Assembly (NCBI GenBank): GCA_963817895.1
Contig: CAWFQB010000005.1
Coordinates: 704,001 to 768,000, forward strand
Length of the DNA: 64,000 nucleotides
Source: an uncultured Chthonomonadaceae bacterium
Lineage (GTDB): Bacteria > Armatimonadota > Chthonomonadetes > Chthonomonadales > Chthonomonadaceae
Direction: 5' to 3'
Below the pieces are notes generated by a model. It was given only the letters and a program-made list of their open reading frames with translations. It made no database searches and was not told the DNA's origin. Of the stretch, positions 3,806-46,298 are shown one piece after another. The stretch's first letter is position 1. Every line of letters begins with the position of its first letter. The position numbers and the translations under genes were made by a program.

Positions 3806-3961
3806 ACAACGTCCTTTCGTCAGATTCTAATGGTGTGACAGAATTGAGGAGGCGCGTCAAAAAGCGCGTTAGCAATCAGGCCGCCGCAACGAGGCGGCGG
3901 GCAAAAGCGACATGGGGTGAGAAAGAGTTCCGGCTCATGCCCACCCCGCGCGGTAAAAGCG

Positions 3962-4123
3962 TCAGTCGGTTTGCTTGCTGCCGCTGGAAGCGGGCGTTCC
4001 GGTTTTGGCCGCGCCGCTGTCTGCGCCATTGGCGTTATCGCTCTTGCTGCCGCATCCCGCCAGAAGGCTGCCGCACAGCGCCAGCAGAACCATGCCGATT
4101 ATCAGGGATTTGTTGGTCTTCAT
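3962..4123 (-). CDS. Small lipoprotein (53 aa), below the ORF-track length cutoff
   Basis: Manual translation MKTNKSLIIGMVLLALCGSLLAGCGSKSDNANGADSGAAKTGTPASSGSKQTD*; LAGC lipobox; AAGGAG RBS. Confidence 0.8.
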   Translation of the reverse strand: MKTNKSLIIGMVLLALCGSLLAGCGSKSDNANGADSGAAKTGTPASSGSKQTD

Positions 4124-4189
4124 TGCTTCTCCTTGCTCCGTTGATGGTTGAGTAGTTGCGCATCCGCAAATATCCTCAAGAACAACATC

Positions 4190-4243
4190 AGTATGGCGAA
4201 CATGGATTAAGGAGAAATTAAGAGGGGGTTAAACTTGTGTTAA
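4190..4243 (-). promoter_or_regulatory. Four YTTAA direct repeats at 11-bp period plus -10 CATACT (Pho-box-like, OmpR/PhoB-type site)
   Basis: TTAA at 4207, 4218, 4229 and 4240; CATACT at 4195-4190. Confidence 0.65.
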
Positions 4244-4479
4244 ATTCGGGAGTAAGGCAGGCAAAAAGAAACCTGCACCTGAGTTTCTAAGAACTCTGAT
4301 ACAGGCCCCATCACTATTGATGGACTTCTATGAAAAGGAGGACATGCGCTGGTTATATAACGTTTCAGGGCCAAAGATTGTTCCTGAAAATGTTCAGGCT
4401 ATTTTGTGAGGTTTTCGCCGCGCTTTTTCGTTATTCCAACAGGTTCCCTTCTCCCAAAGTTGGGAGAAGGGGTTGAGGG

Positions 4480-6019
4480 CTATTCAGGACAGGCGCATAA
4501 TTCCGGCAGTTCCAGCGTGGACACAATGCCGGTTTCCAAGTGGAACACGCGCAGGCAATGGTTGTTCGTATCCGCGATATACAGGTTCCCATTCGCGCCG
4601 CTCAATCCATTCGGCTCATTAAACTGCGCCGCGCTGCCGAATCCGTTTGCCATGCCGGATTTCCCTGTTCCCGCCAGCGTTTGAGTATTGCCCGTTATGG
4701 GATCGAAAACCCTGATTTTGTGGTTGTAGGTGTCGGCGATATAAATCAGGCCGCGATACGCGCAGACTCCCATCGGATGCTGTAAACACGCGCTGTCTCC
4801 GTCGCCGTCCGCATCGCCCCACGTATACAGGCCCCCGCCAATCAGCGTTTCCACGACCTCTTCCCCGGTATTCGGGGAAACGCGGATACGCCGCAGGCTG
4901 CTGCTTTCGCTGTCCGCGATATAAAGCGCGTGTTCGTCCGCCGCAACTCCACCTGGCTGCGCGAAAGCAGAAGTTTTCAAGGCTCCATTGATGCAGGACT
5001 CGCGCCCGTTCCCCGCATACGGCTGAACCTCCCCGCTCCGCAGATCATAGCGCCACAACTGATGGCTGCCCGCCATTGCCAGCGTGAGAACGCCCTCGTC
5101 GCTGTGATGGTAACAGATGTCCCACGGTGAGGAGAGCGGGGTTATCATTCCCGGCCCGCCTGAAGGCCGCGCGCCGGCCTGCGCGCCGGTTCCCGCAACG
5201 GTGGTAACGGTTTGGCTGGCAAGATCAATCCGCCGCAGAACATGGTTGCCGCTGTCGCACACCGTCAGCGCGTCCCCGATCAGCGCCATTCCCTGCGGGC
5301 GACAAAATCGCGCCGCCCGCGAACCGCCGTCCGTTCTTCCCGCTTCCCCGTTCCCGAATGTCTGCGCCCCCCGGCCCTCCAGATCGCAAACCACAATGCG
5401 GTTGTGTCCCGTGTCCGCCACAAACAGCCGTTGTCCCAATCCATCCGCCAGAATTTTGCCGGGAAAGGAGAGGAGCGCGGCCTGTGGATCTTTTCCCTGT
5501 AGTGTCAAAAAGAGGAAATGCGCGGGACGACTCTCATTTGCGCGGCGTAGCCAGCAATTGCCCGATAATCTGATCCAGTTCGTCTCGATGCCCCTCGCCC
5601 GACAGACTGCCGAGATAGTAGCCTTCAGGATCAATAATGCCAATCGTAGGCCACGCATGAACATCGTACTCGTCCCAAACCCGGTGGTCGTTATCACACG
5701 CGACGGGATGCTGAATGTCGAGACGCCGTACCGCGCTTGCAATGTTAGCCACAACGCGCTCGTTGTCGAACTTGCCGGAGTGGATGCCGATAACCACAAA
5801 AGGAAGACCGGCGTATTTCTCTTCCAGATATTTCAGGTCGGGCAGGATGTGCAGGCAGTTGATGCAGCCATACGTCCAGAAATCGAGCAGGACAACGCTG
5901 CCGCGCAATTGCGCCAGTGTCACCGCTTTGCCGTCCGTATTCAGCCAGCAGGCGGGGTCAGCGGGCAGTTGCGGGGCGCGGACGCGCGCTTCGGACAGTA
6001 ATGAATGGGGTTCGCTCAT
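4480..6019 (-). CDS. Thioredoxin-like plus NHL-repeat protein (NHLRC2/SOQ1-like), split by a frameshift near 5550
   Basis: LLDFWTYGCINC in ORF 5534-6019; NHL repeats (LFVADTGHNRI, LYIADSES, LQHPMGV) in ORF 4480-5799. Confidence 0.88.
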
Positions 6020-10631: not shown

Positions 10632-11660
10632 TCAACCATCCACGCCCTGCAATTGTTCCGCCATGCTGTCGCACAAACGATTCCACTCCGCGATGATTTT
10701 GTCGTCGAACGGCTCGTCGTCGCTGTTTTCCACTTTGCCGCGCTCGTCCAGCCAGGCGACGGTTCGCTTCACGCCCTCTACCCAGGGAATCGTGTACCGG
10801 AAACCCAAATCCTGTATGGCCGCGCTGTTGTCGAAAATGCTGGGGTACTGGAAAATGTCAATGCTGATGCCGAAGTGTTTGCGGGCGATACGCGCCATCA
10901 GGTCCGTGGGAATGTGAACAAAGGTCGGTTTGGGCGCGTTCAGGGCTTCGGCTACGCCCTCATGGTAGCGGTTCCACGTCATCCACTCTTCGCCCGTGAC
11001 ATTGTAGGATTTGCCGAACGCTTTTGAATTGCCCGCTGCGCCGACAAAGCCGCGCGCCACGTCATCAATGTGGCAGGCCGCCCATAGACAACTGCCGTCG
11101 CCATGCACGATGATGGGCTTGCCTTTGCGGATGCGGTCCAGATAATACGAACGCCCACCGATGCTATGCACGATAGTTCCGCCCTCGCCATACGTTTGCG
11201 ACGGGCGCATGATGGTCACGGGAAACGCGCCGCTCGCGCCGGCGGCGTTGAGAATGTCCTCACATTTCACTTTGTTCGCGCCGTAACCGCCGGTCGGAAA
11301 GCGGGGTTCGTCTTCTTTGATGGGATAATGCGCGGCGGGACCGCCATATACGCAAACGGTGCTGCAAAAGATAAAGTGTTCGATACGCCCTTCAAACGCG
11401 CGAATCACGCTTTCGGCGTCTTCCGGCACAAAGCCCACCATGTCTATCACGCAGTCGAAATGCCCCGCGTCCGCCATCTGCTTCTCGAACTCGGCGTACT
11501 GCTTGCGGTCGCCGTTGAGAATGGTTGCGCCTTCGGGGATACGCGCCTCGGATTTGCCCCGGTTGTACAGCGTCACCTCGTCGCCGCGTTCCAGCAGTTG
11601 TTTGGTAATCGCCGTGCTGATCAGCCCCGTGCCGCCAATAATCAGAATCTTCAAGCGCAT
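10632..11660 (-). CDS. NAD-dependent epimerase/dehydratase (extended SDR)
   Basis: IIGGTGLIS, STVCVYG, YGANK; AGGAG RBS. Confidence 0.92.
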   Translation of the reverse strand: MRLKILIIGGTGLISTAITKQLLERGDEVTLYNRGKSEARIPEGATILNGDRKQYAEFEKQMADAGHFDCVIDMVGFVPEDAESVIRAFEGRIEHFIFCSTVCVYGGPAAHYPIKEDEPRFPTGGYGANKVKCEDILNAAGASGAFPVTIMRPSQTYGEGGTIVHSIGGRSYYLDRIRKGKPIIVHGDGSCLWAACHIDDVARGFVGAAGNSKAFGKSYNVTGEEWMTWNRYHEGVAEALNAPKPTFVHIPTDLMARIARKHFGISIDIFQYPSIFDNSAAIQDLGFRYTIPWVEGVKRTVAWLDERGKVENSDDEPFDDKIIAEWNRLCDSMAEQLQGVDG

Positions 11661-11766
11661 TCTCCTTTGTACCGTTCTTGTTGAGCGTTCCGCAGGAATA
11701 TTCAGAGAGAATGTCCTTGCGGAACGTTGCTGTTGAACCAGTATACGCGAATTGTTGTGGCGCGTT

Positions 11767-12297
11767 CTAAATCCGCAAGCCTTTTACCTGTCCTAACGCA
11801 TGTACCCATGCTGCCCGTCCGTTGACGACAAAACGCTCGTTTTGCCCGGACGCGGTTTTGATGAGCAGGCCGTTGGGAACAATGCCCGCCGTCGCGACCG
11901 TTTCCGCGCCCGCGATTTCATGCAGGGACAGAGACAGGTCATGCGTCTGAATGTTGATTTTGTGAGAGGTAAAATGCAGCCGCTGATTAGTTACGGTCAG
12001 CCAGCCGCCTACGCTTTCGCCCCGGATGATGTGATTGGCAGGTCCTTCTTTAACAATCTCCTCACCGGGCCGCAGGGGCAGTTTGCCCGCCATTTTGCGG
12101 CTCATCACGCCGCCGAAGACGCCGATAATCAGGCCGAACAACACTCCGGTAATAATCCCGGTCAGCAGCGCGGAAGCGAAGCCAGCCGTAAAAACGGAGA
12201 AAATCGCCATGAAGATGCCGAACACAATGCCGCTGTACACGCCCGCCTTGACGTGGTCTTTCAGCACCCTTTTACGCTGTTGCGGACTTTGCCCCAT
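11767..12297 (-). CDS. Two-TM membrane protein with GRAM/PH-like C-terminal domain
   Basis: Two hydrophobic helices, then EGPANH...VGGWLTVTNQRLHF. Confidence 0.7.
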   Translation of the reverse strand: MGQSPQQRKRVLKDHVKAGVYSGIVFGIFMAIFSVFTAGFASALLTGIITGVLFGLIIGVFGGVMSRKMAGKLPLRPGEEIVKEGPANHIIRGESVGGWLTVTNQRLHFTSHKINIQTHDLSLSLHEIAGAETVATAGIVPNGLLIKTASGQNERFVVNGRAAWVHALGQVKGLRI

Positions 12298-12358
12298 TGT
12301 TTTTGTTCGCTCCTGCTCTGGTCGAGTTGATCGCCGCCGGTTCATGGCGCAGGGACAA

Positions 12359-12988
12359 TCACAAGGTTTGCGTAGCAAACTTGATGAAAATCCAGCGCGC
12401 GGAGGGATTGGGGTTGTCCTGAGTACCGCCCGCAAAGTAGAAAACCAACGCGCCATCCTGATTGGGATGGTTGCCGAACCCGGCGCCGGGTTTCTCGCCG
12501 TTGTTGTAGTGAATATCGTGAAGCCCGTTGCCCGTGCTGTAGGTAAAGCCGAACGCGGCGATGCGGTAAGCAGACCGGGCGTACTGCATCACGGTAGCGG
12601 CAAGGTTGGGGCCGGTGATAGTTTGAAAATCGGTCTGTTTCAGCCCCATGCTATGGTACGACAGCGTTTCGGTCGCAGCGAAACCGGTGGACGGAAAGGC
12701 TGCGCTGCCCAAATCCTCCTCCTTTTCCGCATATTGCGCATTGGAACCCTGATTGGAGTGCGTGTTGAACGCGCACTCATACACGCCTGCCAGCGCGCCA
12801 GACGGGACGCGGAGCAGTATGTAAACGTGGTTGTCGTCCGGTTTTGAACTGCCGCGCGGCGTGAGGCTGACGCTGTTGAAAACGCCTGTCAACATGCCGA
12901 AATGATTGGCAGGCAATTTGTGCTGCGCGCGGGACACGCGCTCGGCGGATGTGAGAAAATGGTGGTTGTCGCTGCTGTGGTCGGCCAT
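12359..12988 (-). CDS. DUF2278/YukJ-like protein
   Basis: GLHDIHYNNG...QDGAL...FATQ motifs; GGAGG RBS. Confidence 0.7.
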   Translation of the reverse strand: MADHSSDNHHFLTSAERVSRAQHKLPANHFGMLTGVFNSVSLTPRGSSKPDDNHVYILLRVPSGALAGVYECAFNTHSNQGSNAQYAEKEEDLGSAAFPSTGFAATETLSYHSMGLKQTDFQTITGPNLAATVMQYARSAYRIAAFGFTYSTGNGLHDIHYNNGEKPGAGFGNHPNQDGALVFYFAGGTQDNPNPSARWIFIKFATQTL

Positions 12989-27625: not shown

Positions 27626-27812
27626 AAAATAATACGCTATATAGCATGAATTCCGCAATAAAATGTTTAATAGATGAGGGCTATCCACTTTCGGCGGGAG
27701 ATTGCCCCGCACAATCGGGATGCTTTTTCTTCAAACCTCCTGAGCGCAAAGCGGCGTTCAGGTTTTGGGCGTTGAAAATGCCCGTGTATATAGATCACAG
27801 GAGAATCACGAC

Positions 27813-28757
27813 ATGCGCCTGCGCACTGTAGCGCCATTGCTCGCAATGGCAATGGGAATGTTCATGGAGCCTGCCCACGCTCAACTCTCGAACTTCGAAA
27901 TCACGCTTACCAATCTCACGCCCACCATCAGTTTCGACGCGACGGATACCATTAGCCCGCCCAAAGCTCCCATGTTCCGGGCGAAAAACGATTTCTCTTC
28001 GCAGGTCTTCACGCAGCCTGTTTTCGCCACGCACGACAGCAGCTATACCCTGTGGCGAGCGGGACAGGCGGCGTCTACCGGGACGCAGTCCGTTGCGGAA
28101 AACGGATTGACCAAGCAGCCCGGCAACTTCGGCAACCCGGTTTATCTGGTTGGAGATTTGGCTTCGCATCAGGCGAGTAATGGCGGCAACGGCAGCGTAT
28201 TGTCCGTCCGCGAGGTTGCCAACCCCAATTTCAATCCGTCCAATCAATGGCACAACGCGGGCGGGAATGCGCCGGGAAGTTTCACGCCGCCATTCCCGAT
28301 AATGAACTGGGTTCCCTCACAGACCAGTGTTATGTTCAACATCGCTACCGATGCGGCGCACCCGCTATTGTCCGGCGAGTTTATGCTGGTTCGCACCAAT
28401 GACGGCTTTTCCGGCCTTGACAGCATCAACCTGTTCAATTTGCCGGGCGGTTCCGAAACGTTCGACATCTATGCCTATGACGCAGGTACGGAAGTCAACA
28501 CTGAAGCGCAAAGCGATCTGGTCTTCTGGAACAGCATCCCCAGCGGCCATACCGCCGAAAACGGCGTGATTACGCTGCATCCCGGCATTCAGGGATTGAA
28601 CGGAGGCTTTCTCAGCCCCTTTGCCTGGAACACGGCCCTGCCAGTCGGACGCATCACCGTGACCGCCGTTCCCGAACCAAGCAGCATGTGCCTGTTTGTG
28701 GCGGCAGGCATGTCCACGTTCCTGCTGTCCCGCCGCCAAAAGCGCCGGGCGCGTTAA
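27813..28757 (+). CDS. Spondin_N-domain PEP-CTERM surface protein
   Basis: Signal peptide; ITLTNLT, AENG, TNDGF, YDAGTEVN; VPEP plus TM helix and basic tail. Confidence 0.85.
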   Translation: MRLRTVAPLLAMAMGMFMEPAHAQLSNFEITLTNLTPTISFDATDTISPPKAPMFRAKNDFSSQVFTQPVFATHDSSYTLWRAGQAASTGTQSVAENGLTKQPGNFGNPVYLVGDLASHQASNGGNGSVLSVREVANPNFNPSNQWHNAGGNAPGSFTPPFPIMNWVPSQTSVMFNIATDAAHPLLSGEFMLVRTNDGFSGLDSINLFNLPGGSETFDIYAYDAGTEVNTEAQSDLVFWNSIPSGHTAENGVITLHPGIQGLNGGFLSPFAWNTALPVGRITVTAVPEPSSMCLFVAAGMSTFLLSRRQKRRAR

Positions 28758-28897
28758 AGCCACTTCCAAATAGCCAGGCGCTTTCAGTACTCGGCCTGTA
28801 TTTCACAGCACATGTTTCAATCCCTGACACTCCGCAGGCCATGCAGCCAGGGATTTCTAACCCCTGGCGAAAATGTGTCCGGTAGTAAAAGAGGTTC

Positions 28898-29872
28898 TTA
28901 TTCGCGGGAAGACCGGGGCGCGTCAGCAGGGGTGAGCGGGATGGGATGCAGCAGTCCGCGCTGAAAACTCCGCGATTCGGTGACGCGCAGGCGTTCGGGC
29001 AGAATGTAGGGGAACCGCAGCCCCTGCGACCCTTCCGCCGGATATGTGGACCCGGCGTACTGCACGGTATATTTGCGGGCCGAAGCATCCGAGCCGAACG
29101 CGATTTTGACAACCGGGGTTTTGGTCTCCGCAATGCCGTGCAGAACCGACCATTCCACAGGCCAGTTCAGCATCTCTTCCAGCCAGCCGATAACCTCCGC
29201 GTGTCCCGCGCCGCGTCCAATCGCGATATAAGCGTCCGCCTGTTCCCGCGTCGCGGCGCAGTCGAAGCGGCAGGGCAAATGCGGCACGGCGCGCGCGCCC
29301 AGCGAACGCAGCAGAACATTGCCCGGTAACGGCCCGGTAACACGCCAGGTATCGGGCGCGATTTCTTCCTTTTGGACTGTGTTCAGCGTCATGGGCCATG
29401 TAGGGTCCACAAACCGGTCGCGATACCAGATTTGCTCGAAAAACGCATGGCAGCAGGCCGGACAGCCTACCATCCGCGCCACTTCCGCCCTGTCGTCGCG
29501 CTGCCAGGCCGCCGCTAAGTCCTCCACATTTTCCAGCGCCCCCACCGCCACACGGTAACGGAGGGGAGTCGCGCCCGTATCGCGCGCCGCGTAGTGCGTT
29601 CCCCCGTCCAGGCCTTCCAGAATTCTCAGGTGCAGCCTGTGCCGCGCGCCCTGTTCGCGCAGGTGTTCCAGTTCCCCCGCATAAACCACCACCCGCATAC
29701 ACGGACGCAAGCCCTCCGCGACGGACAGCAGTTCCCATTCCTGCCAGGCGGCGATAAGACGATCCACGCGGGGCTGCCACACTTCGCGCGCCCGGTCGCT
29801 GACCCATGAAAAGCGGGTAAAGTCCGGCAGACGAAAATCAAGACGCTCCATCGTTTCTGTAAATGATTGCAT
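28898..29872 (-). CDS. Uncharacterised Cys-motif protein (DUF483-like), radical SAM partner
   Basis: GCPACCHAFF and HLPCRFDC motifs; 73 bp downstream of the rSAM gene on the same strand. Confidence 0.75.
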   Translation of the reverse strand: MQSFTETMERLDFRLPDFTRFSWVSDRAREVWQPRVDRLIAAWQEWELLSVAEGLRPCMRVVVYAGELEHLREQGARHRLHLRILEGLDGGTHYAARDTGATPLRYRVAVGALENVEDLAAAWQRDDRAEVARMVGCPACCHAFFEQIWYRDRFVDPTWPMTLNTVQKEEIAPDTWRVTGPLPGNVLLRSLGARAVPHLPCRFDCAATREQADAYIAIGRGAGHAEVIGWLEEMLNWPVEWSVLHGIAETKTPVVKIAFGSDASARKYTVQYAGSTYPAEGSQGLRFPYILPERLRVTESRSFQRGLLHPIPLTPADAPRSSRE

Positions 29873-29945
29873 TTCCGCTCCCTTTCCGCCCGTCAAAAGC
29901 AAAGGCTACCGCCCGAACACCCGAATACCTGAACACCCGCATTGT

Positions 29946-31115
29946 TCAGGCTTTGACCGCAACGGCCCGCATCGCTTCCAGCGTTTCTTCCATTGTCGGG
30001 TTGCTGCCCCGGCCCCACGCTTCCAGCATGGCTCGTTCGAGGTATATCCGGTTTGGCTGCGCGGAAATCGGGAAACTTCCCCGATCCAGCAGACGCTCTT
30101 CGACGTGGCGAAACAGTTTTTTCCAGATGTCGCAGTGTTCCGTGCGGTTGCGCCAATCGCCGTCAATGGCCGTGCCGGGACACTGCCCTTTGCACACAAG
30201 AAAAAAGCGGCAATCCCTGCATCCGCCATGCGCCTGCGGCGTGTGGTACAGCGCGATGTAACGCTCGTAGCCGGAACGGGAGGCTTTGGTGAAATCTATG
30301 CCGTCCTTGTTGGTGCGCCCGCAATTGCTGCGCTGCCCGTGTCCCTCTATGCCCTGTACAGCCGCCGTCGTATAAGGGTCGCAGGCCATCCATACGCACG
30401 TCGCCTGCCGATCCTTTCCCGCCAGCAGGCGTTCCATATCGGAGAACAGGTCGAATCGCAAATGGGATAGCGACGACTCCATTTCGGCAAAATGCAGCAG
30501 CGCACCGATATTTTCCGGCGCGTTCAGCGCGTATTTGCGGCGAATGAACTCGTTTTCCACTTCCAGAATGTGCAGCCGCGCGCTCGTGATGCCCATAGCG
30601 TCACATTCGCGGAACCACGCTTCCATGCGCGGCAGTTTGTCCCCGGTGGCATTGTTGCGGTGCAGGGTCACAATCAGGCTTGGCGGTGTCCCCTCTTCGC
30701 ACAGGCGGCGAATGGCCTGATGCGTTTTCGCGCTCGCTTCCCGCGTTTTCGCCAGATTGCCGGCCCAGCGCGCATCGTTGAGTTCGTCAGGCCCGTCTAC
30801 CGAAATTCCGACGTGGACGTTGTACTTTCGGAACAGGCGGATGTGATTTTCGCTGACCAGCGTTCCGTTCGTTTGAACGGAATTGGTCCCGAACTGCTCC
30901 AGCCCCCACGCCCACAATTCTTCCAGGTCATTATCGTGAATCAGCAGCGGTTCCCCGCCGAACAGGGTAAACGCGCCGCTTTTCAATACCGCCTGCTTCA
31001 TCGCCTCCATATCATACGATTGGGTCAGATTGCCCGCGTCCCGTTGCGGATTCTGGTAGCAGTACTGACACCCGATATTACAGTTGACGCCCAATGGCCT
31101 CAGTTCAACGCCCAT
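29946..31115 (-). CDS. Radical SAM/SPASM peptide or protein maturase
   Basis: CNIGCQYC; FGGEPL; QTNGTL; GISVDGP; C-terminal Cys cluster including CRDCRFFLVCKGQC. Confidence 0.93.
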   Translation of the reverse strand: MGVELRPLGVNCNIGCQYCYQNPQRDAGNLTQSYDMEAMKQAVLKSGAFTLFGGEPLLIHDNDLEELWAWGLEQFGTNSVQTNGTLVSENHIRLFRKYNVHVGISVDGPDELNDARWAGNLAKTREASAKTHQAIRRLCEEGTPPSLIVTLHRNNATGDKLPRMEAWFRECDAMGITSARLHILEVENEFIRRKYALNAPENIGALLHFAEMESSLSHLRFDLFSDMERLLAGKDRQATCVWMACDPYTTAAVQGIEGHGQRSNCGRTNKDGIDFTKASRSGYERYIALYHTPQAHGGCRDCRFFLVCKGQCPGTAIDGDWRNRTEHCDIWKKLFRHVEERLLDRGSFPISAQPNRIYLERAMLEAWGRGSNPTMEETLEAMRAVAVKA

Positions 31116-31227
31116 GATTGTTGCTCCCCGCGCAAAAAGGATGAAGGGTGAAGGATGAAGGATGAACAGCCTCCCATTCATCCTTCATTACTCAGCATCT
31201 CTATCAACTATCAACTATCAACTGCTT

Positions 31228-31352
31228 ATGGACAAACCAGATAAAGATTGTACTATGGCGGGGTTCCGAGTGTTGAAAACACCCGTCTGAGTGGCGTTCC
31301 GCCAAGCGTCCTACGGACGCGGGATTGTACAATGTCCAAGTGGTTTGTCCAT
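31228..31352. repeat. ~125-bp MITE/REP-like element between the giant gene and the rSAM gene
   Basis: Perfect 12-bp IR ATGGACAAACCA/TGGTTTGTCCAT; inner 31273-31320 is 46/48 identical to the reverse complement of 59786-59833. Confidence 0.75.
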
Positions 31353-34300
31353 TAGATCGCCTTCGCCGGCACATCAATATGCGGCGTCGAGGTGTCCCCG
31401 TGCGGAATGGCCGTGCCGTCCGTGTGCGGAATGGTTTTGGTGTCTATGTGCGGCAGCGTCTGCGTGTCCACATGGGGAATGATTGTGGAATCCACATGCG
31501 GCACGACCGGCGTGTCCACATGCGGGCTGATAGCCGTATCTACGTGCGGAATGATCGTGGCGTCCGTGTGCGGTGTGCCAACGTCAAAGTGCGCCCCGGG
31601 GGTGTCCCAGTGCGCGTGGGTATCTACATGCGCCTTGCCAAAGAAACTGGTGTCGTCGTGAGAGCCGGTGGAATCGGCGTGACTGCCTCTGCTGTCCGCA
31701 TGGCTGGACGCCGTATCGCCGTGTTTGGCGGCAGTATCGGCGTGTTGGGCGGCAACATCCGCATGCAATTTCTGTGGCGTATCCCCATGCTGCGAGGGCG
31801 TGTCTACGTGCTGCGGCGGCGTATCCACATGCGGCGCAGCCGGAATATCGGCGTGCTGCGAGGGCGTATCTATATGCTTGCCCGCCACATCTATATGCGG
31901 CGTCACCAGACTGCTGAACAGGGAACTGGCGTTGTCCTTGATCTGCTTCTGAACGCGGTCCGCCAGCGCGTTGATGTCGCGCGGAGACACGGACAGGGTG
32001 AAAGCGGGCATATTCACCTTATGGCCCGACCATACAAACTGGCCGCTGACGGACGCGCTGAAGCCGGACGAGCCGATATGCGTGTCGAGCTGCAGGCCGA
32101 TGGAGGTATCCAGGGATATGTTGGGAATGAGGGTAGTATGGGTCACCGGGTCCTGAATCGCGCCCGTATCCAATTTCAGCGGCAATCCGATTGTTACCAG
32201 ACCGGCAAATTCGTAGGCGTTGCCTGTACGCTGTATGCTGAATGTCGCGCTCACGCCCAGCCACTGCCCTGTGATGATCGCGCTGTTGTTCGTAACCGTC
32301 ACCATAGACTTCAAAAGGTTGAAGTCTTGCAAAGTAACGCTGACTGCCACCTGCAAAAACAGGGTTCCCTTGTTGTCGAGCGTCATAAGGCCGTCCGCTT
32401 TTACTTTCAGCGGGGACGAGTCCGGGAACAGATCGAGATGCCCCTGCATCTGGAAGTGGGTATCGTCCATTGCCAGGCTGGCCGTAAAGACCGTGTAGTC
32501 GCCCACGCGCAGCAGGCTTGTTCCACTCACTGAAAAAGCGGGAGAGCTGTGGCTGATAACCACCTGCCCGCGTAAATCCGCCGAAAACAGGCTGCCGATG
32601 CTGCCGGACAGATGCAGGACGGTTCCGAAGCCGCCCGACGCGCCCGCAACTCCGAAGCGGCAGTCGAAGGCAAGCGCGTTTGCCAGATTCCAGCCGCCGC
32701 GCAGGAACAAGACCATACCCTCATCGTTGGGCGTAGGCGAGGGCGGCAACACCTGTATGGTCGCGTTCAGATCGTTGAAAGCGGCGGGAACCCGGTTCTT
32801 CGCCACCAGGTCGCGGAACTCTTTGGGCGTGGTGATAAGCCAGTCGGCGTAAATGCCCGACATGAACCCGAAGGCCAGCGTCTCCTGCCCGACGCGCTTT
32901 TCCAATGGCAGGCACTGGATCAGTTCGTTCAGGCTGAGGGTCTTGATCGCGTTCAGCAGATGCGCCAGAACGCCATACGCGGTATACGGCGGCTGTAACC
33001 CCGTCTGTGTGCCGAGCGACTTGCCGCTGAGATATTTGGGCAATTGCAGGTAGTTCGGCCCGACGGTCAGGGAAAACGGAACTGCCGACGCGAACGAGGC
33101 ATTGGGGTCGAGCAGGTAGGTTCGATCCGTAAAGAACTTTTCTACGCTGGTGAACAGCGCCAGCAGTTGCTTGAAGTCGGGAACCTGCGGTTTCGGGAAC
33201 TGCCAGTCCGTCACCACGCTCAAGCCTTCCAATCCGAGATATTCGTAGCGCAAATGTTCGCAGAAAAGCGGAATGGGGATCGGAATCACGGTTTCGTAGA
33301 GTACCAGCACGAACAGGTTGTGGAGCGTGATCGTGTTCACGAGCGCGTTGCTGTTGGGCAGAATCGGCAGTTTGTCCAGGGGCAGCGCGATGGCGGCGGC
33401 CATAGTAATCACATCGAAGAAATCAATAACGGCGTCTATCTTGACGGAAAGCGCGGCGCCTCCGAACAGTTCGCCAATCGTGAGACTGTACAGTTCGATG
33501 CCCATGATCTGCGGCAGCGGGCCGATGAAGCAGGATGTCAGTATTTTGATCGGCTTGTCGCCCTCTACGGCGATCTTCCCGCTGACGCGCCCATCGTCCG
33601 TGATGGTAATGTCGAAGGTGAAGCCCTGCGGTATCTCAAAATCGAGATAGGACTTGAAGCGAGTCGGCAGATGGTCGAGCCGGGACGCAACGGCGTTGAG
33701 CGCTGTCGTGAACTCTGTGGGGAGGGAAACGCCGGTTTTTTGCAGCAGCGCCAGCAGCGCGCCTGTGTTCAAATTGCCTTTGTCGTCGAACGCCTTTATC
33801 TCCGCGAGAGGAATGCCTTTGGGCAGAGCCGAACTCAGCGCGTTCAGGTGGCAGGCATCCAGAAGCGATTTGATGGGCGTAAGCGGAATTTGGAGCGGAA
33901 ACGCTGGGATCGGCCTGCTCGAAGCCGCCCTGCGCGTTGAACTGTTTGCCGTCGTAACTGAAGACGGGAACCTCGAATTTGAACTTGCCGAAATCGCCGA
34001 AGTCCGCGTAGCACCAGGTAGTCCCGCCCTCGGTTTTGAACTGAAGGACGAGGAAGGGGGAGGAGACGGCGCGAATGGAAAGCCCGTTTTTGACATCGGC
34101 CTCGACCCGCAGGCGCGTCACGCTGCTGTCATCACCTTTGCGGTATGTGTTGAAAACATTCACGGACGGGGAGCCGTCAGATTTCGTGCCAAACAGCGTG
34201 TTTGTCTGATTCGGGATGCCGAACCCGGCGTCCATCGCGAAACTGATGTCGCTGCCCAGTTGCAGGGTGAAGTTGGCGGCTTCGATATTGCCCGTGCCCC

Positions 34301-36196
34301 ATTTCAGATGCAGGCTGCCCACATTGGTATCGGGGTAATTGATTTCCAGGGGGCTGACCAGATGATCTATCGTCAGCGTCGCGCCCGCCGCGTCCGCTTT
34401 GAAATCCGCTTTGCAGGGCGTGTTGGTGGCGGGGAACAGCGATTGCAGACCGTTGGGCATTCCCGTGAACCACAGGTCTACCTCCGAGTTAAGGCCCATT
34501 TGGTTTTGCCCGCGCTGTCGCGCGTCCCGGTTATTCCGACGGACTCCCATCCGAGATGAACGGCAGAGGGGGTGCCGGGAATGGGAATGGAAACGTCGGC
34601 GCTCGTGGCTTTGAAAACCAGCCCCATCGTTGCTTCCTTCTTGTAAAGCTGCACGGAACCGGCAACCGCAACGTCGGGGTCGAAATGGAGTCCGCCGGCA
34701 ATGGTAACGTCCCAGGTATACGCGCTGGCAGCGTCCAGGGGCTGCGCGGTATCGGGCTTTTTGGTTGTGGATTTAAGGGCTTTTTGAATGGAAATCGCCA
34801 CGCTGTTCGCCGTCATGCCGCCGTCCGGCAACGTGACAAGATCGCCCTTGCCGGTCTGTCCGGCGTCCAGGGTAAACGTTCGGGCGTCCGAAGTGGTCAT
34901 CACGCTGGCGGCTAAAGTAACATTGTGGTCGAAAACGGTGGCGGCGATGGAACCGGAAACGCTCCAGTCGGTTTTCCCGTCGTACTGAAAACTGAGGTTC
35001 GTGCCGGTGAATACCAGTCCGTCCACAACCGTGACGGTTTCGGTGTCCTGCGCCGTAAGCAGCGCGTGTATCGCCCCGGAAACCTGTGTCACGCCGCTGC
35101 CCGCGCTTGCATCCCTGGCGATATGTACGGTAGTGGTGTTAATGCCCTGATTGGCGACGCCGAACGGCAGCGTCCAGCGCGTGGCGCAAACGGCGTCGAA
35201 GGTAAAAACGCCCGTGTCGGGAACGGCGGTCAGTTTCACGCCGGAAAGCGCGACATCGGGAACTTCGGGCGGAAGCGCGACGCCCTGCGGCAGCAGGTCA
35301 CGGACAACCGCGTTCAAATTCAGCGGCGTTTGCGCCGCCAGATCCGCTTCCAGCGTCCAGTTGGCGGCTCCCGCGGGCTTGCTTGCGGATACCGTCAGGT
35401 CGCTGTCGAACAGCAGAAGCTGGCCCTGAATACTGCCTTCTACGGTTCTGGTCGCGGCCGTGCCGGGCGTATTGACGGTCAAATTGAGCGACACGCCGCT
35501 GACGGCGAATTTATCCGGGAAAACCTGCCAGGCATGGTCTTTGCCCGATACCTGCGTTGCCAGCTGAATCATAGCGATGGATTTCGTTTTAATATCCACG
35601 CTGAGGGTGAGACTGGCAAGCGATACGTTGCCCAAACTTGCAAGCCCGGAAGGGAAGAACGAAAGGTCGGCGGAAGTGAGGCTAGACAGTTCGGTCAGGC
35701 CAAGCGCGGGCAGGGCGTTGGCTGCAAGGGTCAGAGTCCAGAGGGCAGCCGTCGCCGTCACCTGAAATTCTACAGACACGGTTGTTTGTTTTACCGTAAT
35801 GGCGGCATCCACAATTCCCGTGACGGTATTTACGTCTGCCGAACTGACGTTCAGCTTGACGCGAGTCACGGCCAGCCACGACGCTTCGGGAAAGAGGAGG
35901 GGCGCGGCATCTTGATAGGTCACGGTCAGGCCGCACGACTTTGCCGTCCCCGCTTCCGTAAAGTCAATCTCTACATTCGCCTGTGGAATGTCAAAAAGAG
36001 TGACAGCGCCGGTAAGCGCGAGGCTGCCGTCTGAGGCAGTGGCGAGATTCGCGTTTTGTACCACGATTTTATCGCCGCCGGGGAGGTGGGCGAGCAGGGC
36101 GGGAAGAAGCCCGCCGCTTTGGGCAATGCCGGCCAGGGAGAGCAGGCCGTTTTGAATGTCTTGCTGAATCTCTTGCTGCAGCTGCGCGAGCGACAT
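31352..36196 (-). CDS. Giant beta-rich protein (~1614 aa after repairing two compensating indels) with a C-terminal His-x-Asp repeat tail
   Basis: Three overlapping ORFs joined at ~34490 (-1) and ~33900 (+1); 4845 nt = 1615 codons; GGAG before ATG 36196. Confidence 0.8.
31355..31900 (-). repeat. Coding repeat: 24 H-x-D motifs in 182 aa, period mostly 7-8 aa
   Basis: PHIDVAGK HIDTPSQ HADIPAAP HVDTPPQ ... HGDTSTP HIDVPAKAI*. Confidence 0.95.
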
Positions 36197-36336
36197 AGCG
36201 GAACTCCATTTTCGGTGAACGTACCGACCGTGTGAAGAGAACAGTTGGCAGAAAACGGTGGCCTGCATAGTGGCAAGGAGTGGCCTGTGTCGGAAGCGTA
36301 GTATCAGGACGAGCTTCCCCCGTAACCTTACCAGCC

Positions 36337-36365
36337 ATTATAACAAAAGTATTATTCGCTGTCAA
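36337..36365 (-). promoter_or_regulatory. Perfect sigma70 promoter with extended -10 for the giant-protein/rSAM unit
   Basis: TTGACA at 36365-36360, 17-bp spacer ending TGT, TATAAT at 36342-36337. Confidence 0.85.
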
Positions 36366-36517
36366 TAAGTTTTTTGAGGTTGTGATATTTGTATGCTATG
36401 TCAATTTTTGGCAATATATATAGGCGTATATCCTGTGTTACTTCCGGCGTGACAGTGGAAGCACACGTCCTCCACAATGAGATTGTTTTTCTCCCTTGAT
36501 AGTCATGAGAAACGCTT

Positions 36518-36550
36518 CTTAATCTTCTCTTAACAGGCGGCTGGTATGAT
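36518..36550 (+). promoter_or_regulatory. Two CTTAA repeats at 11-bp period plus TGnTATGAT (Pho-box-like promoter)
   Basis: TTAA at 36519 and 36530; TATGAT at 36545. Confidence 0.6.
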
Positions 36551-36716
36551 ACCGCAAGAAATCCGTGAGATAAATCTCGCGGCTGTGATAACGAAACCCG
36601 CCTTCGCGGGTTGCATACTCAGTCCACGCAGGTGGACTTTGTTACCGCAGCCGAGGAATTTATTCCCCGGATGCCAATGTTTTATGACAGTATGCCTGTT
36701 AAGAGAGGATCGTTTC

Positions 36717-40820: not shown

Positions 40821-42397
40821 CTAATTCTCTATTTGCGCCCACGCTGCGGTCTTAACGATGTCTTGCATCTGCGCGGGCGTCAGGCCCAGTTTGGCCGCGC
40901 TCGTAATCACGTCCCGCATGTCCACGCCGTACCAGTTGCGCTTGTTCGGTTCGCCTAATCCCGCTACGTTCAAACACGCGATGGCATCGGCTACCTGACG
41001 TTCAAAATCAGCAGCGTTTAATTTCCGCTTTGTACGCACGTGTTCACGCAGTTGTTGCGCGGCGTGTTTCATTCCCGTTGCGAATGGCGGGAAATCTGCG
41101 GCAAGGAACTGTTGCGGGCGGGCAGGCATGTCAACGCGACGCGCCATTTCCGCGTGACTTGCGGCGGCAAAATAGAACATTGAGAACGCCCTAAATAATG
41201 GAAAGTCCGTCATTCCCGCATAGCAGGCGGCAATGAACTGCGCCGTCCAATCGGCTTCGCGCAGGGTAACGCTGTTATACTCCTGTAAGTCGCGCTTCCC
41301 AGCTCCTGCGTACCCCACGCTTCTTCAAACATTCGTCCCAACCGCTCAATTCCTAACAGCGTCAGCGGCATTCCCGTGCTGAAGAGCGGGTCTACAAACG
41401 CCATTGCGGACGGCAGCAGCGCCCACCTTTCTCCGGCGGCAATGCTCATGCGATACGTAAGTTTGGGCGCGTAAACAAACGGGCGAATGGTCTTCGCGTC
41501 GGCAAACTGCGCCTCAACCGTCGGGAAGCGGCGTAAAATACGCGGCCACGCGGCTTCGCCCTCCGCAAGGTTCAACTCCCGCGCCAGCCAATCTTCTATT
41601 GCCACGCCCGCGCTCGTGACGCCATTATTAAACCGCAAAACCCACATCCAGCCGCCCTCAAAGACATGATGCAGCGCGGCGTCATCGGGCGGATACGGGG
41701 GCGTTTCGGGAGTTTGGAAAACGTTCATACGGTCGCAACGGTGTACGTTCGTGAAATGCGAATATAAGGCTTGCGTGGGCGGGTAAGCGGCAAAACTTGC
41801 AGTCGGCAAATTCAGGCTTCGCGCCAGCAGTCCGTTCGGCCCGCCCGCATCCACGACAAATTGTGCCACGACGCGAATGGCCTGCCCGTACCGCTCGCCC
41901 GTCAGAATTGCGCTCCCCGCCGTAAACTCCGCGCCGCACAATCGCGTTTCATCCAGATACTCCACGCCCAACGCCAGCGCTTCCCGCAAAAGAAAATCAT
42001 CTACATCCGAGCGCAGCCAGTGCGTATCCGCAACCGCGTTGTTCGGGCTTGCCGCGACAATCAGTTGATTTCCGCGCGCAGGGTCGGGACAAAACGGCCT
42101 GCCCGCCTGATGGTGGTAATAGGTGAAGCCGCGTTTTAATCCGCAAACGACATCGGGGTACGCGGCCTGCCACGCGCCATAGGTGGTCAGAGGAAGCAGG
42201 CGGGAGAGGTCGTAACGATGCGCAAGCTGTTCAATCAGCAGGTTCATCAGGGGCGACGTGGATTCGCCGATGGCAAACCGGGGATGCTTGCCCTTTTCCA
42301 GCAAAATCACGCGCAGCCCGATACGCCGCGCAATCATCGCCAGCAGCGTTCCGCCAAATCCTGAGCCAATAACGGCTATATCGTAGTCTGTTTGCAT
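40821..42397 (-). CDS. Flavin-dependent halogenase-like oxidoreductase, frameshift near 41295
   Basis: GSGFGG, PRFAIGES, LKRG, GWMWVL, FVDPLFSTG; C-terminus in ORF 40821-41318. Confidence 0.85.
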
Positions 42398-43323
42398 GGT
42401 TCAAGACAATCACAGTCCACTGTCAGCGGCAAGGATTGCAAGCGATTCATTTCCGCGATACGTTTGGCGCGGGCGGGGGAACAGGCGCAGGCATAGAACT
42501 TTTCTATGTCCCATAAATCCGCGAACACGCGCCCTCGTTGTAAGTTTAGGCCGTACTCCTGCGCGGATTCGAGAGAACGAAGCGAAGGAGGGGCGAACAT
42601 TCCGGCTTCAGCCAATGCTTCCATTGCGCCATTGCCGCCCCGCGTCGGTATCAGGCAGCAGACGGACGCGCCCGCGTCGAAGGCCACGTCCAGCGAACGC
42701 TTTGCCCATTCCAGCCCCTCCGCCTCACTCATAAACGGCGGGCGAACCAGCAGAAACACGCGCAGGTCTATGCCTTCCTGACGCAGCCACGCGGCTTTCT
42801 GTTGAAAATCCTCTACGGTAAACCGCTTGTTCAAACGCTGCAACACCTGCGGGTGCGCGGTTTCCAGCCCGATAGCCACTTCCAACTTCCCTGCCAATCT
42901 CCTGCGGAACTGTCGGCAGCGTTCGCCGATAAAAGCCGGGTGCGCTTCCACAATCACGCGCTCGAAATGGGTGACAAGGGCGGCGATCTCCTCATCGTCT
43001 TCGGGCGGGATGGCGTTGGGATCGAAGAAACTGCCCGCGTTATAGAGTTTAATCTGGCGGGCGGGCGGCAAACGGTTGAGCGCATGGCGTATCTGCGCGG
43101 CAATCGCGCCTTGTGGTACGGTCGTATCCAGCGTGTTCTGCCACAAATCGCACATCAGGCAACGGAACGGACACTCGCGATTGGTCAGAAACACGGTCGC
43201 GGTCGGCACGAGTTCGCCATTCGCGCCCCATTCCTCTTCCCATAAAAACGCATACGGAACAAGCGCGTCAAGGGCGTTTTTCGGGCCGCGCTGTGCAGTT
43301 ATCCAGCGACTTTCATAGTTCAC
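42376..43323 (-). CDS. Radical SAM enzyme, RaSEA/TIGR01210-like
   Basis: CPFRCLMC; IKLYNAGSFFD; EVAIGLET; no SPASM domain. Confidence 0.85.
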   Translation of the reverse strand: MNYESRWITAQRGPKNALDALVPYAFLWEEEWGANGELVPTATVFLTNRECPFRCLMCDLWQNTLDTTVPQGAIAAQIRHALNRLPPARQIKLYNAGSFFDPNAIPPEDDEEIAALVTHFERVIVEAHPAFIGERCRQFRRRLAGKLEVAIGLETAHPQVLQRLNKRFTVEDFQQKAAWLRQEGIDLRVFLLVRPPFMSEAEGLEWAKRSLDVAFDAGASVCCLIPTRGGNGAMEALAEAGMFAPPSLRSLESAQEYGLNLQRGRVFADLWDIEKFYACACSPARAKRIAEMNRLQSLPLTVDCDCLEPCKQTTI

Positions 43324-44766
43324 TTATTTCGACGCTTCCGCAGGGACGACATTGCCTGATAATCGCTCACTTTCCGGGTTCCAGGCTTCGCGCAGGCGGT
43401 CTTCCCACTGGCGCAGAAACACCTGCCGACACCACGCCTTGCTGACCCGCCAATCCCGGTACGATTCGCCGCCCGCCCCGTCCTGAAAGCGGCGCTTGGG
43501 GTATACGGGCATGTCGATTCCTGTCACTGCGCGAATGCCCGCCTGCACAACCGTTTGTTTTAAGGTATACAGCCGTTCCACGCTGCCGTTCAGAACCGTT
43601 TCAAAGGGAATGGCAAGCGCGGGCGCGATTACGGAACGCATAGTATAGGGGGAAAGCGCGTCAAAGCCGTAGCGCTGCGCGGGCGCGTATGTGCGGACAT
43701 AGGCGCGGGACAGGCCGCCCGAATACGTCAGGCTGTGCTTCATGTTTTCCACGCCCCAGCCCTCCTGATACAGCAGGGGGTTGCGCAGAACGCTTGAGAG
43801 AGTCAGGTCGGAGTCTTCCAGCGGGTAGGATTTCAGGTTCTCGTCGCCGCCGTCGCCGTCCAACAGGTATTTGAGGTTCGGATAGCGTTCGCGGATGGCG
43901 CGGAGCAGGCACAGCGCGACGGCGGCGCACTCTACGTCGAGCGGGTGATAGTCCTCAATGACTCCAATCGCCGCTTCTAAGTCAACATGGCTTGCGGGAA
44001 CCTGTACGCGCTCCCATTGCGCTTCAAGCCCCAGTTCTTTTACAACCATTTCGGCCTGTTGCGCATCCTTGCCGTTGCCAAGATCAAGGGTAAAGGCGCG
44101 GAGCAGATTGGGGTCGCGTCCCAATTCTTTCAGGGCATGATTTGCCAGAATTAAAATTGATGTGCTGTCAATGCCGCCTGAAAAAGCCAGCCCAATTTGT
44201 TCCCCGTCCGGCAGTCCTCCAAGCCAGCGTTTCAGCACGGCATACGCCGCGCCGACATAGTTTGCGCCCGCTTCTTCCAGGTCGGTTGTGCCCTGCCCGA
44301 TGGGGGGCGTAAAAAAGCGGTGGTAGCGGGGCGCGGGGTCGGGGCAGCCGATCTGGTCAATCTCGACAAGATAGTGCGCGGGAACCATGCGCGTGTACAT
44401 CGGGTCGAACTGCCAGCCGATTTTCTGCTCCTGACACCACTGGAACAGGCTGTCTATGCGGTCGGAAACCAGCAGGAACGGACCGTGAAACATCTTCGCC
44501 ACAAAATAGCGCAGGGGAACGCCGATTGTGCGGGCAAGCCGAACTGTCTGCTCACATCGCGCCGTCCCCGCGAAATGCCCGTCCATGCCTGCAAGGGTAG
44601 CTATATCCGCGTTGCGAATAGCCGTTAAAATCGCATCTGAACTGCCTGCTTCCGGCCTTTCAACACTGGACGCCAAAACAGTGTTCGATGCTACATTTGT
44701 ATTATCCTTCAAGGCCGCATGATGCAGGCCGGTCAAATCCACAAGGCGTTCCACCCCCAAAAGCAT
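43324..44766 (-). CDS. Asparagine-synthase-like ATP-dependent ligase lacking the N-terminal catalytic Cys
   Basis: FSGGIDS PP-loop; DGDGGDE; KRRFQDG; GGAGG RBS. Confidence 0.85.
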   Translation of the reverse strand: MLLGVERLVDLTGLHHAALKDNTNVASNTVLASSVERPEAGSSDAILTAIRNADIATLAGMDGHFAGTARCEQTVRLARTIGVPLRYFVAKMFHGPFLLVSDRIDSLFQWCQEQKIGWQFDPMYTRMVPAHYLVEIDQIGCPDPAPRYHRFFTPPIGQGTTDLEEAGANYVGAAYAVLKRWLGGLPDGEQIGLAFSGGIDSTSILILANHALKELGRDPNLLRAFTLDLGNGKDAQQAEMVVKELGLEAQWERVQVPASHVDLEAAIGVIEDYHPLDVECAAVALCLLRAIRERYPNLKYLLDGDGGDENLKSYPLEDSDLTLSSVLRNPLLYQEGWGVENMKHSLTYSGGLSRAYVRTYAPAQRYGFDALSPYTMRSVIAPALAIPFETVLNGSVERLYTLKQTVVQAGIRAVTGIDMPVYPKRRFQDGAGGESYRDWRVSKAWCRQVFLRQWEDRLREAWNPESERLSGNVVPAEASK

Positions 44767-44900
44767 AACACACCTCCCAAAACGATTACCGCGAGTATTC
44801 GTCAATCTATTGGCGGTTTCCTGCTCAACGCGCCGACATAAGCCCACATAGGCGTGTCGCAGTCGCCAGAGATCGAAAATCCCTGTTAAGCTGTGGGGAC

Positions 44901-46298
44901 GTGAACACCTTAAAATTTGAAACGCGCTCCTCGATCCAGCGTCAAAAGGAATTACGAACGGCAGCGGCGAACTGTAGCGGTAGTCAGTCGTTCAGGATAA
45001 AGCAGGAGGCGTCAGTGTCCGCTGTTCCCTCACAAACAAAACGCGCTTCACGGTTTGCCGGTTTGCGCCGCCCGCGCAAATGGGTGTCGCGCCGCGCCGT
45101 TTTGCGTTTCATGGCGTGGGCCTGTCTGCCGACGTTTTGGGTCGGGCTGGTGACATACCGGGGAGTTCAAAAGCGGCAACTGTTTGAAGCGGTGCAGAGC
45201 GGAAGCCCCACGAAAGTGCAACGCCTGTTGCGCTCCGGCATGGACGCCAATACGGTTGTGAATACGCAGATTATTGACAATCACAATCCGCTGATGATGC
45301 TATGGTGGTGGGGTACGCGCTGGTCCGACAAAGAGGAGGACACCAACTGCGCGCCGATTCTGGTCAGCGCGGCGCAAAAGGGGGATCGGGACATTGTGAC
45401 CCTGCTGCTGGACGCGGGCGCGAAAGTCAATGCCAAAGACCCGTCCGGCGCAACGCCCCTGATGGCCGCCTGCGAAGTTGGGAAGCCTCAAATAGCGGAA
45501 CTGCTGCTGGCGCGGGGGGCGCATCCCAACGCCGCCGATAACAACGGCGAAACCGCGCTGATGAACGCGGTCACGTTTCCCAAAGTGGTCAAATTACTGC
45601 TGACGCATGGCGCAAAGGTCAATGTTCGCGACATTGAGGGGCGTACCGCGCTGTCAAGAGCCTGCTCGAACGGCCAGATGACAGTCGCGCGGCTTCTGGT
45701 GGATGCGGGGGCGGATGTCAACCCGCAGCGCGTGGGCGATGATACGCCGTTGCGCAATGCGGCAGGGCAAAACAGCGTCAAGCTGGTACGCCTGCTGTTG
45801 GAACATGGGGCCGATGTGCAACGCGCCGAAGAAAACGGCCTGACGCCCCTGATGGCGGCAAACAACGCCGAAATCGCGCGGCTGCTGCTGGCGCATGGCG
45901 CGAACGTGAACGCTGTTTCCAAAGTCGGCGATACGCCTCTGATGATGACGGCCACCATTGATGACGGGCGCCTGGCTGCCGCGCTGCTGGCGCGGGGGGC
46001 GCGGCTTGAGGACGTGGACAAGGACGGCGATACCGCCCTGTTCTGGGCCGTGAGCAGTCACACGCGCAAATATGCGCGGGGATTGTTGGAAGCGGGCGCG
46101 AATGTCAACGCGCAAAACAGAGTCGGCGATACGCCCCTGCTGAAAGCCGAAGCCGAAGGCGACATGGGAATGGGCGCGCTGCTGTTGCAGCATGGCGCAA
46201 ACGCCGCTCTGGTCAACAAAGCCGGCCACTCGGCGCAGGCATGGGTGGCAACGCTTCCCGTTCCTCCACTTGTGGCGTCCAAAACAGCCGGGCATTGA
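44901..46298 (+). CDS. Membrane-anchored ankyrin-repeat protein (start uncertain)
   Basis: Multiple G.TPL..A...LL..GA.VN repeats after an N-terminal TM helix. Confidence 0.9.
   Translation: MNTLKFETRSSIQRQKELRTAAANCSGSQSFRIKQEASVSAVPSQTKRASRFAGLRRPRKWVSRRAVLRFMAWACLPTFWVGLVTYRGVQKRQLFEAVQSGSPTKVQRLLRSGMDANTVVNTQIIDNHNPLMMLWWWGTRWSDKEEDTNCAPILVSAAQKGDRDIVTLLLDAGAKVNAKDPSGATPLMAACEVGKPQIAELLLARGAHPNAADNNGETALMNAVTFPKVVKLLLTHGAKVNVRDIEGRTALSRACSNGQMTVARLLVDAGADVNPQRVGDDTPLRNAAGQNSVKLVRLLLEHGADVQRAEENGLTPLMAANNAEIARLLLAHGANVNAVSKVGDTPLMMTATIDDGRLAAALLARGARLEDVDKDGDTALFWAVSSHTRKYARGLLEAGANVNAQNRVGDTPLLKAEAEGDMGMGALLLQHGANAALVNKAGHSAQAWVATLPVPPLVASKTAGH

Follow-up and report, generated by a model that had tools for sequence, protein, structure and literature searches.

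What does a radical S-adenosylmethionine (rSAM) enzyme act on when the gene ahead of it encodes a giant protein that ends in a long run of His-x-Asp (HxD) triplets? The question is raised by a stretch of 64,000 nucleotides (nt) from an uncultured Chthonomonadaceae bacterium (assembly GCA_963817895.1, contig CAWFQB010000005.1, positions 704,001 to 768,000), referred to here as the window, in whose numbering all positions of the locus are given. A promoter, a giant gene, an rSAM gene and a gene for a Cys-motif partner follow one another in this order on the minus strand, and all of them are co-oriented. On the whole, we favour the view that the operon represents, in a cellular version, a widespread and uncharacterised system of protein maturation, in which the pair of enzyme and partner modifies the tail of the giant protein, a cross-link being the likeliest modification. 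That the pair acts on HxD arrays at all is highly probable. The features of the operon are the following.

36337..36365, minus strand: sigma-70-type promoter, TTGACA-17 nt-TATAAT with TG before the -10 element, 12 of 12 consensus matches
31352..36196, minus strand: giant gene for the putative substrate (about 1,615 aa in the intact ortholog), present here as three open reading frame (ORF) pieces
31355..31906, minus strand: HxD array at the C-terminus (24 H-x-D motifs in 184 aa), which ends 6 residues ahead of the stop
31324..31351, minus strand: weaker promoter-like site in the 236-nt gap ahead of the rSAM gene, 10 of 12, a consensus match only
29946..31115, minus strand: radical SAM/SPASM enzyme, 389 aa, with Pfam Radical_SAM and the SPASM Cys set
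28898..29872, minus strand: partner, 324 aa, remotely DUF483-like, with GYPxCC...LPCxxxC and LHGIAE invariant

The original prediction, made before any database search, had described a perfect promoter ahead of three co-oriented genes, 24 H-x-D motifs at the C-terminus of the first product and an rSAM/SPASM enzyme as the second, and all three descriptions hold. The promoter (36365-36337) is the top-scoring of nine promoter-like sites in 28400-36600, where shuffled sequences average 3.4. The enzyme has the CX3CX2C motif (CNIGCQYC) and the full set of SPASM cysteines, and it matches Pfam Radical_SAM with 55.4 bits. The 184-aa tail contains 25 His, 24 of them within H-x-D, together with 25 Asp and no Cys, and its motifs are spaced by 6-10 residues, mostly 7-8. 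In the ortholog, all 24 His of the tail lie in HxD, whereas this holds for 2 of the 24 His in the 1,425-aa body, and none of 10,000 shuffles of the ortholog tail reached 24 HxD. A six-frame scan of the 7.48-Mb assembly found no other array of more than four HxD motifs. AlphaFold2 leaves the tail unstructured, with a predicted local distance difference test (pLDDT) below 50.

Outside the window, a small ORF on the minus strand of genome G000 (contig C2, around 130,250) has a Sec-like signal and a C-terminus rich in His, Asn and Asp with both HxD and HxN, including 4 HxD within a stretch of 24 aa; the same enzymes may act on it as an additional, unlinked substrate.

Association of the enzyme pair with His-x-Asp arrays

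We followed the partner family through contigs of one genome per species, which gave 93 relatives, 80 of which were kept; they come from many phyla and include one archaeon. In 73 of the 80 loci, the gene directly upstream of the partner is the rSAM (46-73% identical), and in the remaining seven the contig ends at most 322 nt from the partner: the rSAM and its Cys-motif partner are a fixed pair. ORFs with at least 4 HxD in 50 aa, our threshold for an array, were found at 55 of the 80 loci, and at 54 of the 80 such an ORF was near the pair, that is, outside it and no more than 6 kb upstream or 3 kb downstream. The density of these ORFs is 66 in 583 kb near the pair (11.3 per 100 kb) as compared to 1 in 329 kb farther away (0.30 per 100 kb), a difference of about 37-fold. 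The co-occurrence of rSAM homologues with HxD-repeat ORFs, which the original prediction had set as its test, is thus present. Over 68 arrays, 1,404 of 1,476 His residues stand within HxD, and in 59 of 71 array-bearing ORFs the last motif is at most 15 residues from the end.

The same association is seen in viruses. The Thermus phages phiLo, phiMa and Cumys encode an rSAM that is 52-53% identical to that of the window over 98-100% of the query. In Cumys, this gene sits among baseplate and fibre genes; it is preceded immediately by Cumys_13, which encodes a 344-aa HxD-rich protein, and followed by a gene annotated as a DUF483-domain protein. Of the 38 partner loci in IMG/VR, the rSAM is present in 36 and an ORF dense in HxD or HxN in 35. 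Considering the presence of pair and arrays together across phyla and viruses, the arrays are very probably the substrate.

Two IMG/VR loci (L096 and L097) share with a Dehalococcoidia locus (L076) the match coordinates of rSAM and partner, the HxD-array ORF and the size of 38,936 nt. If they are the same DNA, either the genome contig of L076 belongs to a prophage or phage or the classification as viral is doubtful.

The proteins that carry the arrays are unrelated to one another; they comprise the family of the giant body, other giants, short proteins with a signal resembling that of twin-arginine translocation (Tat), and the baseplate-region protein of a Thermus phage, so that the array is the element they have in common. 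The giant protein falls into no family of Pfam, NCBIfam or PHROGs and has no PADLOC match, and its body is homologous to giant proteins of Chloroflexota and Cyanobacteria (28-37% identity over about 1,400 aa). Only 4 of 15 giant-body relatives (987-2,481 aa) have an HxD end, and the tail would therefore be a module added to a scaffold. In the AlphaFold2 model of the C-terminal 847 aa (pLDDT 68), a confident antiparallel beta-meander at 394-636 is followed by a long helix. Foldseek returned only generic beta-sheet matches for this region (usher barrels, OspA and ApoB100, template modelling score at most 0.22), and we leave the fold unassigned. For the body, the Protein Atlas gave unnamed clusters only; the nearest named cluster, DUF6603 at 0.80, is no more than a lead.

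The distribution of the pair among relatives of the host is uneven. The rSAM occurs in 5 of 41 related genomes, and three genomes of the same order keep rSAM and partner (60% identity) in the absence of the giant gene; in this order, the pair is accompanied instead by peptides of roughly 90 aa with six motifs and a Tat-like signal. A quick tree places the rSAM of the window among giant-substrate enzymes of Chloroflexota, Cyanobacteria and Myxococcota and apart from its same-order kin, in a group of 11 rows whose support is not strong (SH-aLRT, a Shimodaira-Hasegawa-like likelihood ratio test, 90). The substrate class requires 7 changes on this tree, compared with a mean of 19.5 after shuffling, a comparison that shows clustering only, as related rows share labels. 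The tree placement, the substrate switch within the order and the presence of the rSAM in so few of the related genomes point to whole cassettes having been transferred together with their substrate. In these same-order relatives (L007, 12922-15380; also seen at L047), three genes come after the short HxD precursor, namely one of the PqqD family, an ORF that lacks a Pfam match and looks P-loop-like by eye only, and NTP_transf_5; this trio is missing from the operon of the window.

The enzyme, its partner and the proposed modification

In 20 orthologs of the rSAM, the cysteines C12, C16, C19, C240, C245, C265, C299, C302, C308, C312 and C328 are invariant. The enzyme matches 58 NCBIfam families, all of them far under their curated cut-offs, and scores as follows against the families that matter here.

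DynA: 77.3 bits, cut-off 450
anSME (anaerobic sulfatase-maturating enzyme): 75.7 bits, cut-off 349.45
AmcB: 67.5 bits, cut-off 425
YhhB: 58.8 bits, cut-off 445
GrrM/OscB: 51 bits, cut-off 310
XyeB: 40.6 bits, cut-off 450
FxsB: 35.1 bits, cut-off 370

Its nearest solved structures are anSME (4k36, E 7e-12) and the triceptide synthase ChlB (9gm3, E 3e-7), and PADLOC and PHROGs gave only generic rSAM matches or weak matches to a viperin-like core. Judged from these comparisons, it is a SPASM enzyme nearest to the cyclophane synthases and anSME and a member of neither. It has no recognition element (RRE) of the kind used for peptides that are ribosomally synthesised and post-translationally modified (RiPPs). 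The rSAM orthologs at L020, L027, L028, L032, L046, L076 and L083 have short C-terminal repeats of the HGDxPHGD type, which resemble the substrate motif; the rSAM of the window has no such repeats.

The partner of the window has no match in Pfam, NCBIfam, PADLOC or PHROGs. Members of its family pass the cut-off of DUF483 (PF04467; for example, 27.7 against 25 bits), which the protein of the window does not. A word-limited search gave 297 clusters at 90% identity, and an exhaustive search gave 1,345 clusters at 50% identity (E <= 0.001), 563 of them with E <= 1e-30; the family of 1,345 clusters is without functional annotation. Its invariant residues are C140 and C141 (GYPxCC), C201 and C205 (LPCxxxC), and H245 (LHGIAE). 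Most partner homologs (best 120 of 297) have a C-terminal class I SAM methyltransferase domain, which is missing in the partner of the window. Fusions are also found, of rSAM and partner (P0209) and of rSAM, partner and methyltransferase (P0148). In three further cases (L077 7995-9854, P0163 and P0211), the partner is fused to DUF364/DUF4213, annotated as "putative heavy-metal chelation", which hints at a link to metals.

Structural modelling supports a physical interaction between the two proteins. The AlphaFold2 model of the partner is confident (pLDDT 83.5), and the model of the rSAM-partner complex scores 0.88, while the best control reaches 0.51; of 157 solved complexes, 116 reach the mark for this score, as do 2 of 215 mismatched pairs, counts that apply here only roughly because our own alignments were used. 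Separate runs share at least 77% of their contacts, with a partner pLDDT of at least 87. In the modelled interface, the SPASM region of the rSAM (270-298 and 320-323, with the invariant W321, R322 and N323) faces the FTR..W and LHGIA segments of the partner, so that residues invariant in both families are used.

In the mechanism that we propose, the rSAM and its DUF483-like, Cys-rich partner would form a cytoplasmic complex that recognises the His-x-Asp triplets themselves. The repeated motif must be what is recognised, because the enzyme has no RRE and the carriers have no common leader. All the triplets in the giant's C-terminal tail would be covalently modified, and the tail would stay attached to the protein. 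The 5'-deoxyadenosyl radical would take the hydrogen from the C-beta of Asp, and this carbon would then form a bond with C2 of the imidazole in the His that stands two residues upstream, with a loss of 2 Da per motif and the formation of about 24 small rings. These rings could make the tail rigid and protease-resistant while leaving it able to chelate metals. For a role, we infer adhesion or metal binding outside the cell.

We put forward this specific cross-link between His and Asp only tentatively. The ring from His-C2 to Asp-C-beta is the leading guess because the i, i+2 arrangement of an aromatic residue and Asp or Asn resembles that of triceptides and because both halves of the bond are known. 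According to the available text of two papers, bonds from His-C2 to a C-beta are made by HaaB, YhhB and HtkB, and bonds from an aromatic carbon to the C-beta of Asp by OscB and YxdB (PMC11002830; PMC11499958). The HxN variants of phages would fit the preference for Asn or Asp at position 3. In a broader picture, which might hold but which we would not yet rely on, a two-subunit machine, made up of a SPASM enzyme and a DUF483-like Cys4 partner, staples dozens of His-x-Asp/Asn motifs into small rings on full-length structural proteins and not on short peptides, occurs in over ten bacterial phyla, in an archaeon and in many phages, and uses the array as a portable C-terminal "cap" on carriers unrelated to one another, namely beta-meander giants, Tat-exported proteins and virion fibres.

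Alternative explanations

One alternative concerns the state of the giant gene. This gene starts at 36196 (MSLAQ, with GGAG before it), at the same start as the ortholog, and ends at 31352. The original prediction of a protein of about 1600 aa is right in size, as a genome of the same genus (G002) has a single uninterrupted ORF of 1,615 aa, while the gene is not a single ORF in this assembly, where it is divided into ORFs 34478-36268, 33636-34550 and 31352-34096. A blastn comparison with the ortholog (88% nucleotide identity) places in the window a deletion of 1 nt near 34489 and an insertion, also of 1 nt, near 33899. We consider it improbable that the system is dead here, with a recent pseudogene for the giant and enzymes left without a substrate, as could be suggested by these two differences from an intact ortholog, by the stop at 34478 that comes after the first of them, and by the lack of another large HxD array in the assembly. 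The two indels cancel, the 590 nt between them are an open frame that still encodes conserved sequence, and each of them makes a short run of bases longer or shorter. The assembly of the window (7.48 Mb in 14 contigs) is 81% complete, and the promoter, the rSAM and the partner are all intact. In G002 (L006), frameshift-like breaks are found at the C-terminus of the partner and in a phosphatase-like gene (3664-4698 and 11336-12619), where the window is intact; both assemblies seem prone to indel errors, since each is broken where the other is not. Three contigs from one public DNA run (6% of words) span only 34011-34161 and 34297-34445, outside both indel sites. An assembly error is a far better explanation than decay, and we hold it with good confidence, on account of the compensating indels, the base-run lengths, the breaks of G002 in other genes and the completeness of 81%.

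The other alternatives concern what the pair does. The same HxD substrate might undergo other chemistry, such as epimerisation of His or Asp, anSME-like oxidation of the Asp C-beta, a bond of C-N or C-O type, or links from one motif to its neighbour, and in most relatives methylation by the fused methyltransferase might come next. Such chemistry is a somewhat unlikely but serious explanation: anSME scores nearly as high on the rSAM as the best cyclophane synthase (75.7 and 77.3 bits) and is the nearest solved structure, the methyltransferase domain on most partner homologs points to further chemistry in the family, and in the available text on the His-Xaa-Ser (HXS) system, the action of the rSAMs on H-x-S gave an unexpected +8 Da rather than -2 Da (PMC13128918). 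On the other hand, the strict i, i+2 spacing of an aromatic residue and Asp or Asn is a triceptide signature, both halves of the proposed bond have the precedents cited above, and the partner of the window has no methyltransferase domain. It is very improbable that the pair acts elsewhere, for example on DNA or nucleotides as a preprint on Thermus phages suggested, with the HxD proteins being metal-binding or fibre proteins that happen to be located nearby. Homologs do lie near deazapurine DNA-modification genes in some cyanobacteria, according to the available text of that preprint (bioRxiv 10.1101/2024.08.14.607894), His/Asp arrays could bind metals without any modification, and the DUF364/DUF4213 fusions carry an annotation of heavy-metal chelation. 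However, the arrays follow the pair over unrelated carriers, phyla and viruses, some rSAMs bear short HxD repeats at their own C-termini, the three-gene operon contains no DNA-modification gene, and the nearest relatives of the rSAM all act on peptides or proteins.

Returning to the maturation of the HxD tail by the pair, several observations weigh against it. No array of at least four motifs was found at 25 of the 80 loci, several of which are on short contigs, and of three full-length array-less loci that were inspected, two have peptides with two motifs only. The rSAM is under every curated cut-off for cyclophane synthases (77 against 450 for DynA, the best), anSME, which is no cross-linker, scores level with them, and the chemistry of modification is one that we infer for every member of the family. 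The fold of the partner gives little guidance: Foldseek found nothing in the PDB at E <= 0.001, and the best VIA-align match was 2guk (Z 6.4), whose function is unknown, followed by NleE (Z 3.9), so that the fold is left unassigned. In this assembly, the gene for the putative substrate contains two frameshifts. A signal peptide is missing from the giant protein, and a Tat-like motif was found in none of the 16 carriers whose arrays begin past residue 600 (a regular-expression heuristic detects such a signal in 26 of the other 55 array ORFs); an extracellular role is unsupported for this copy because the giant has no signal peptide and the giant carriers have no Tat-like motif.

If the maturation of the tail is confirmed, radical-SAM "RiPP" chemistry would extend on a large scale to large proteins, at 24 sites here and at up to about 90 in relatives. 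A new enzyme family would be added, and probably a new His-Asp ring of use in peptide and protein engineering; the conserved module in the tail regions of phages would have an explanation, and a portable protein tail that is enzymatically hardened or binds metals would become available as a testable case. The window contributes a giant beta-meander carrier family common to three phyla, a substrate switch inside one order and a model of the enzyme-pair complex. It also contributes a chromosomal operon of three genes that is clean and has a strong promoter; with the ortholog, in which the substrate is intact, this makes a simple co-expression system.

The surroundings of the operon are ordinary chromosomal genes, with no phage genes nearby. 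As originally noted, no protease or exporter adjoins it; the flanks are a Spondin_N/PEP-CTERM gene and a purple-acid-phosphatase-like gene. The former (27765-28757, downstream of the operon and on the opposite strand) encodes a Spondin_N domain and, at its end, a weak PEP-CTERM motif. Another candidate natural-product cluster is located at 41210-46298, where minus-strand genes encode asparagine-synthase-like, radical SAM and tryptophan-halogenase/FAD-type proteins, and a 465-aa ankyrin-repeat protein adjoins it.

Comparison with known systems

The original prediction knew of no described family of this kind. This is true to the extent that no curated family covers the system and that no rSAM system for HxD and no His-x-Asp ring was found in the literature searched, which did not extend to supplements; the publications found on HxD or His-x-Asp deal with kinases, dioxygenases, a coronavirus signal and HXS. 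It needs correction in one respect: in the only relevant publication on DUF483 that we found, the rSAM+DUF483 module of Thermus phages was noticed and DNA modification was suggested for it, and in the available text the HxD protein is not taken as the substrate (bioRxiv 10.1101/2024.08.14.607894). The phage module (Cumys and phiMa) has the same gene set as the window, namely an rSAM, a DUF483-type gene and an HxD protein. It lies among baseplate and fibre genes, whereas the copy in the window is chromosomal and its carrier is a giant with a beta-meander.

The HXS antiphage system (HxsA-D) is similar in that rSAMs mature a protein with repeats, there of His-x-small-polar type; this effector is likewise no short peptide but a protein, and it acts outside the cytoplasm. 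According to the available text, it employs two rSAMs (HxsB and HxsC) together with HxsD, and its effector has five HxS repeats, a peptidoglycan-binding domain, an N-terminal cleavage and a single +8 Da change (PMC13128918). The window has one rSAM and a different partner, and its giant has 24 HxD and no Pfam domain. HxsB and HxsC are not among the best 25 of the 58 NCBIfam rSAM matches, and the partner belongs to no NCBIfam family. A role in defence is not indicated by these sequence comparisons, in which PADLOC gave only the weak matches to a viperin-like rSAM core. The enzyme anSME likewise belongs to the SPASM rSAMs, its target is a full-length protein that has no leader, and among solved structures it is the one nearest to the rSAM of the window. 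It differs in that the rSAM reaches only 75.7 of the 349.45 bits of its cut-off, the tail has no Cys and there is no sulfatase family among the 19 neighbouring ORFs scanned with Pfam.

The closest parallel is offered by the triceptide synthases (XncB/XyeB, OscB/GrrM, MscB/FxsB, YxdB, HaaB, YhhB, HtkB and ChlB), which like the rSAM of the window are SPASM enzymes without an N-terminal RRE and which rank among its best family and structure matches, none at a curated cut-off. They act on repeated aromatic-x-x motifs, and the window likewise has 24 HxD in the tail encoded by the adjacent gene. In contrast to them, the system of the window has an obligatory DUF483-like partner. Triceptides derive from short leader-core peptides, while the putative substrates of systems like that of the window are the tails of proteins of 1,000-2,270 aa, exported proteins and phage proteins, with up to about 90 motifs. 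The array described here is the end of a protein of about 1,615 aa and not a short precursor, although peptides of about 90 aa take its place in relatives of the same order.

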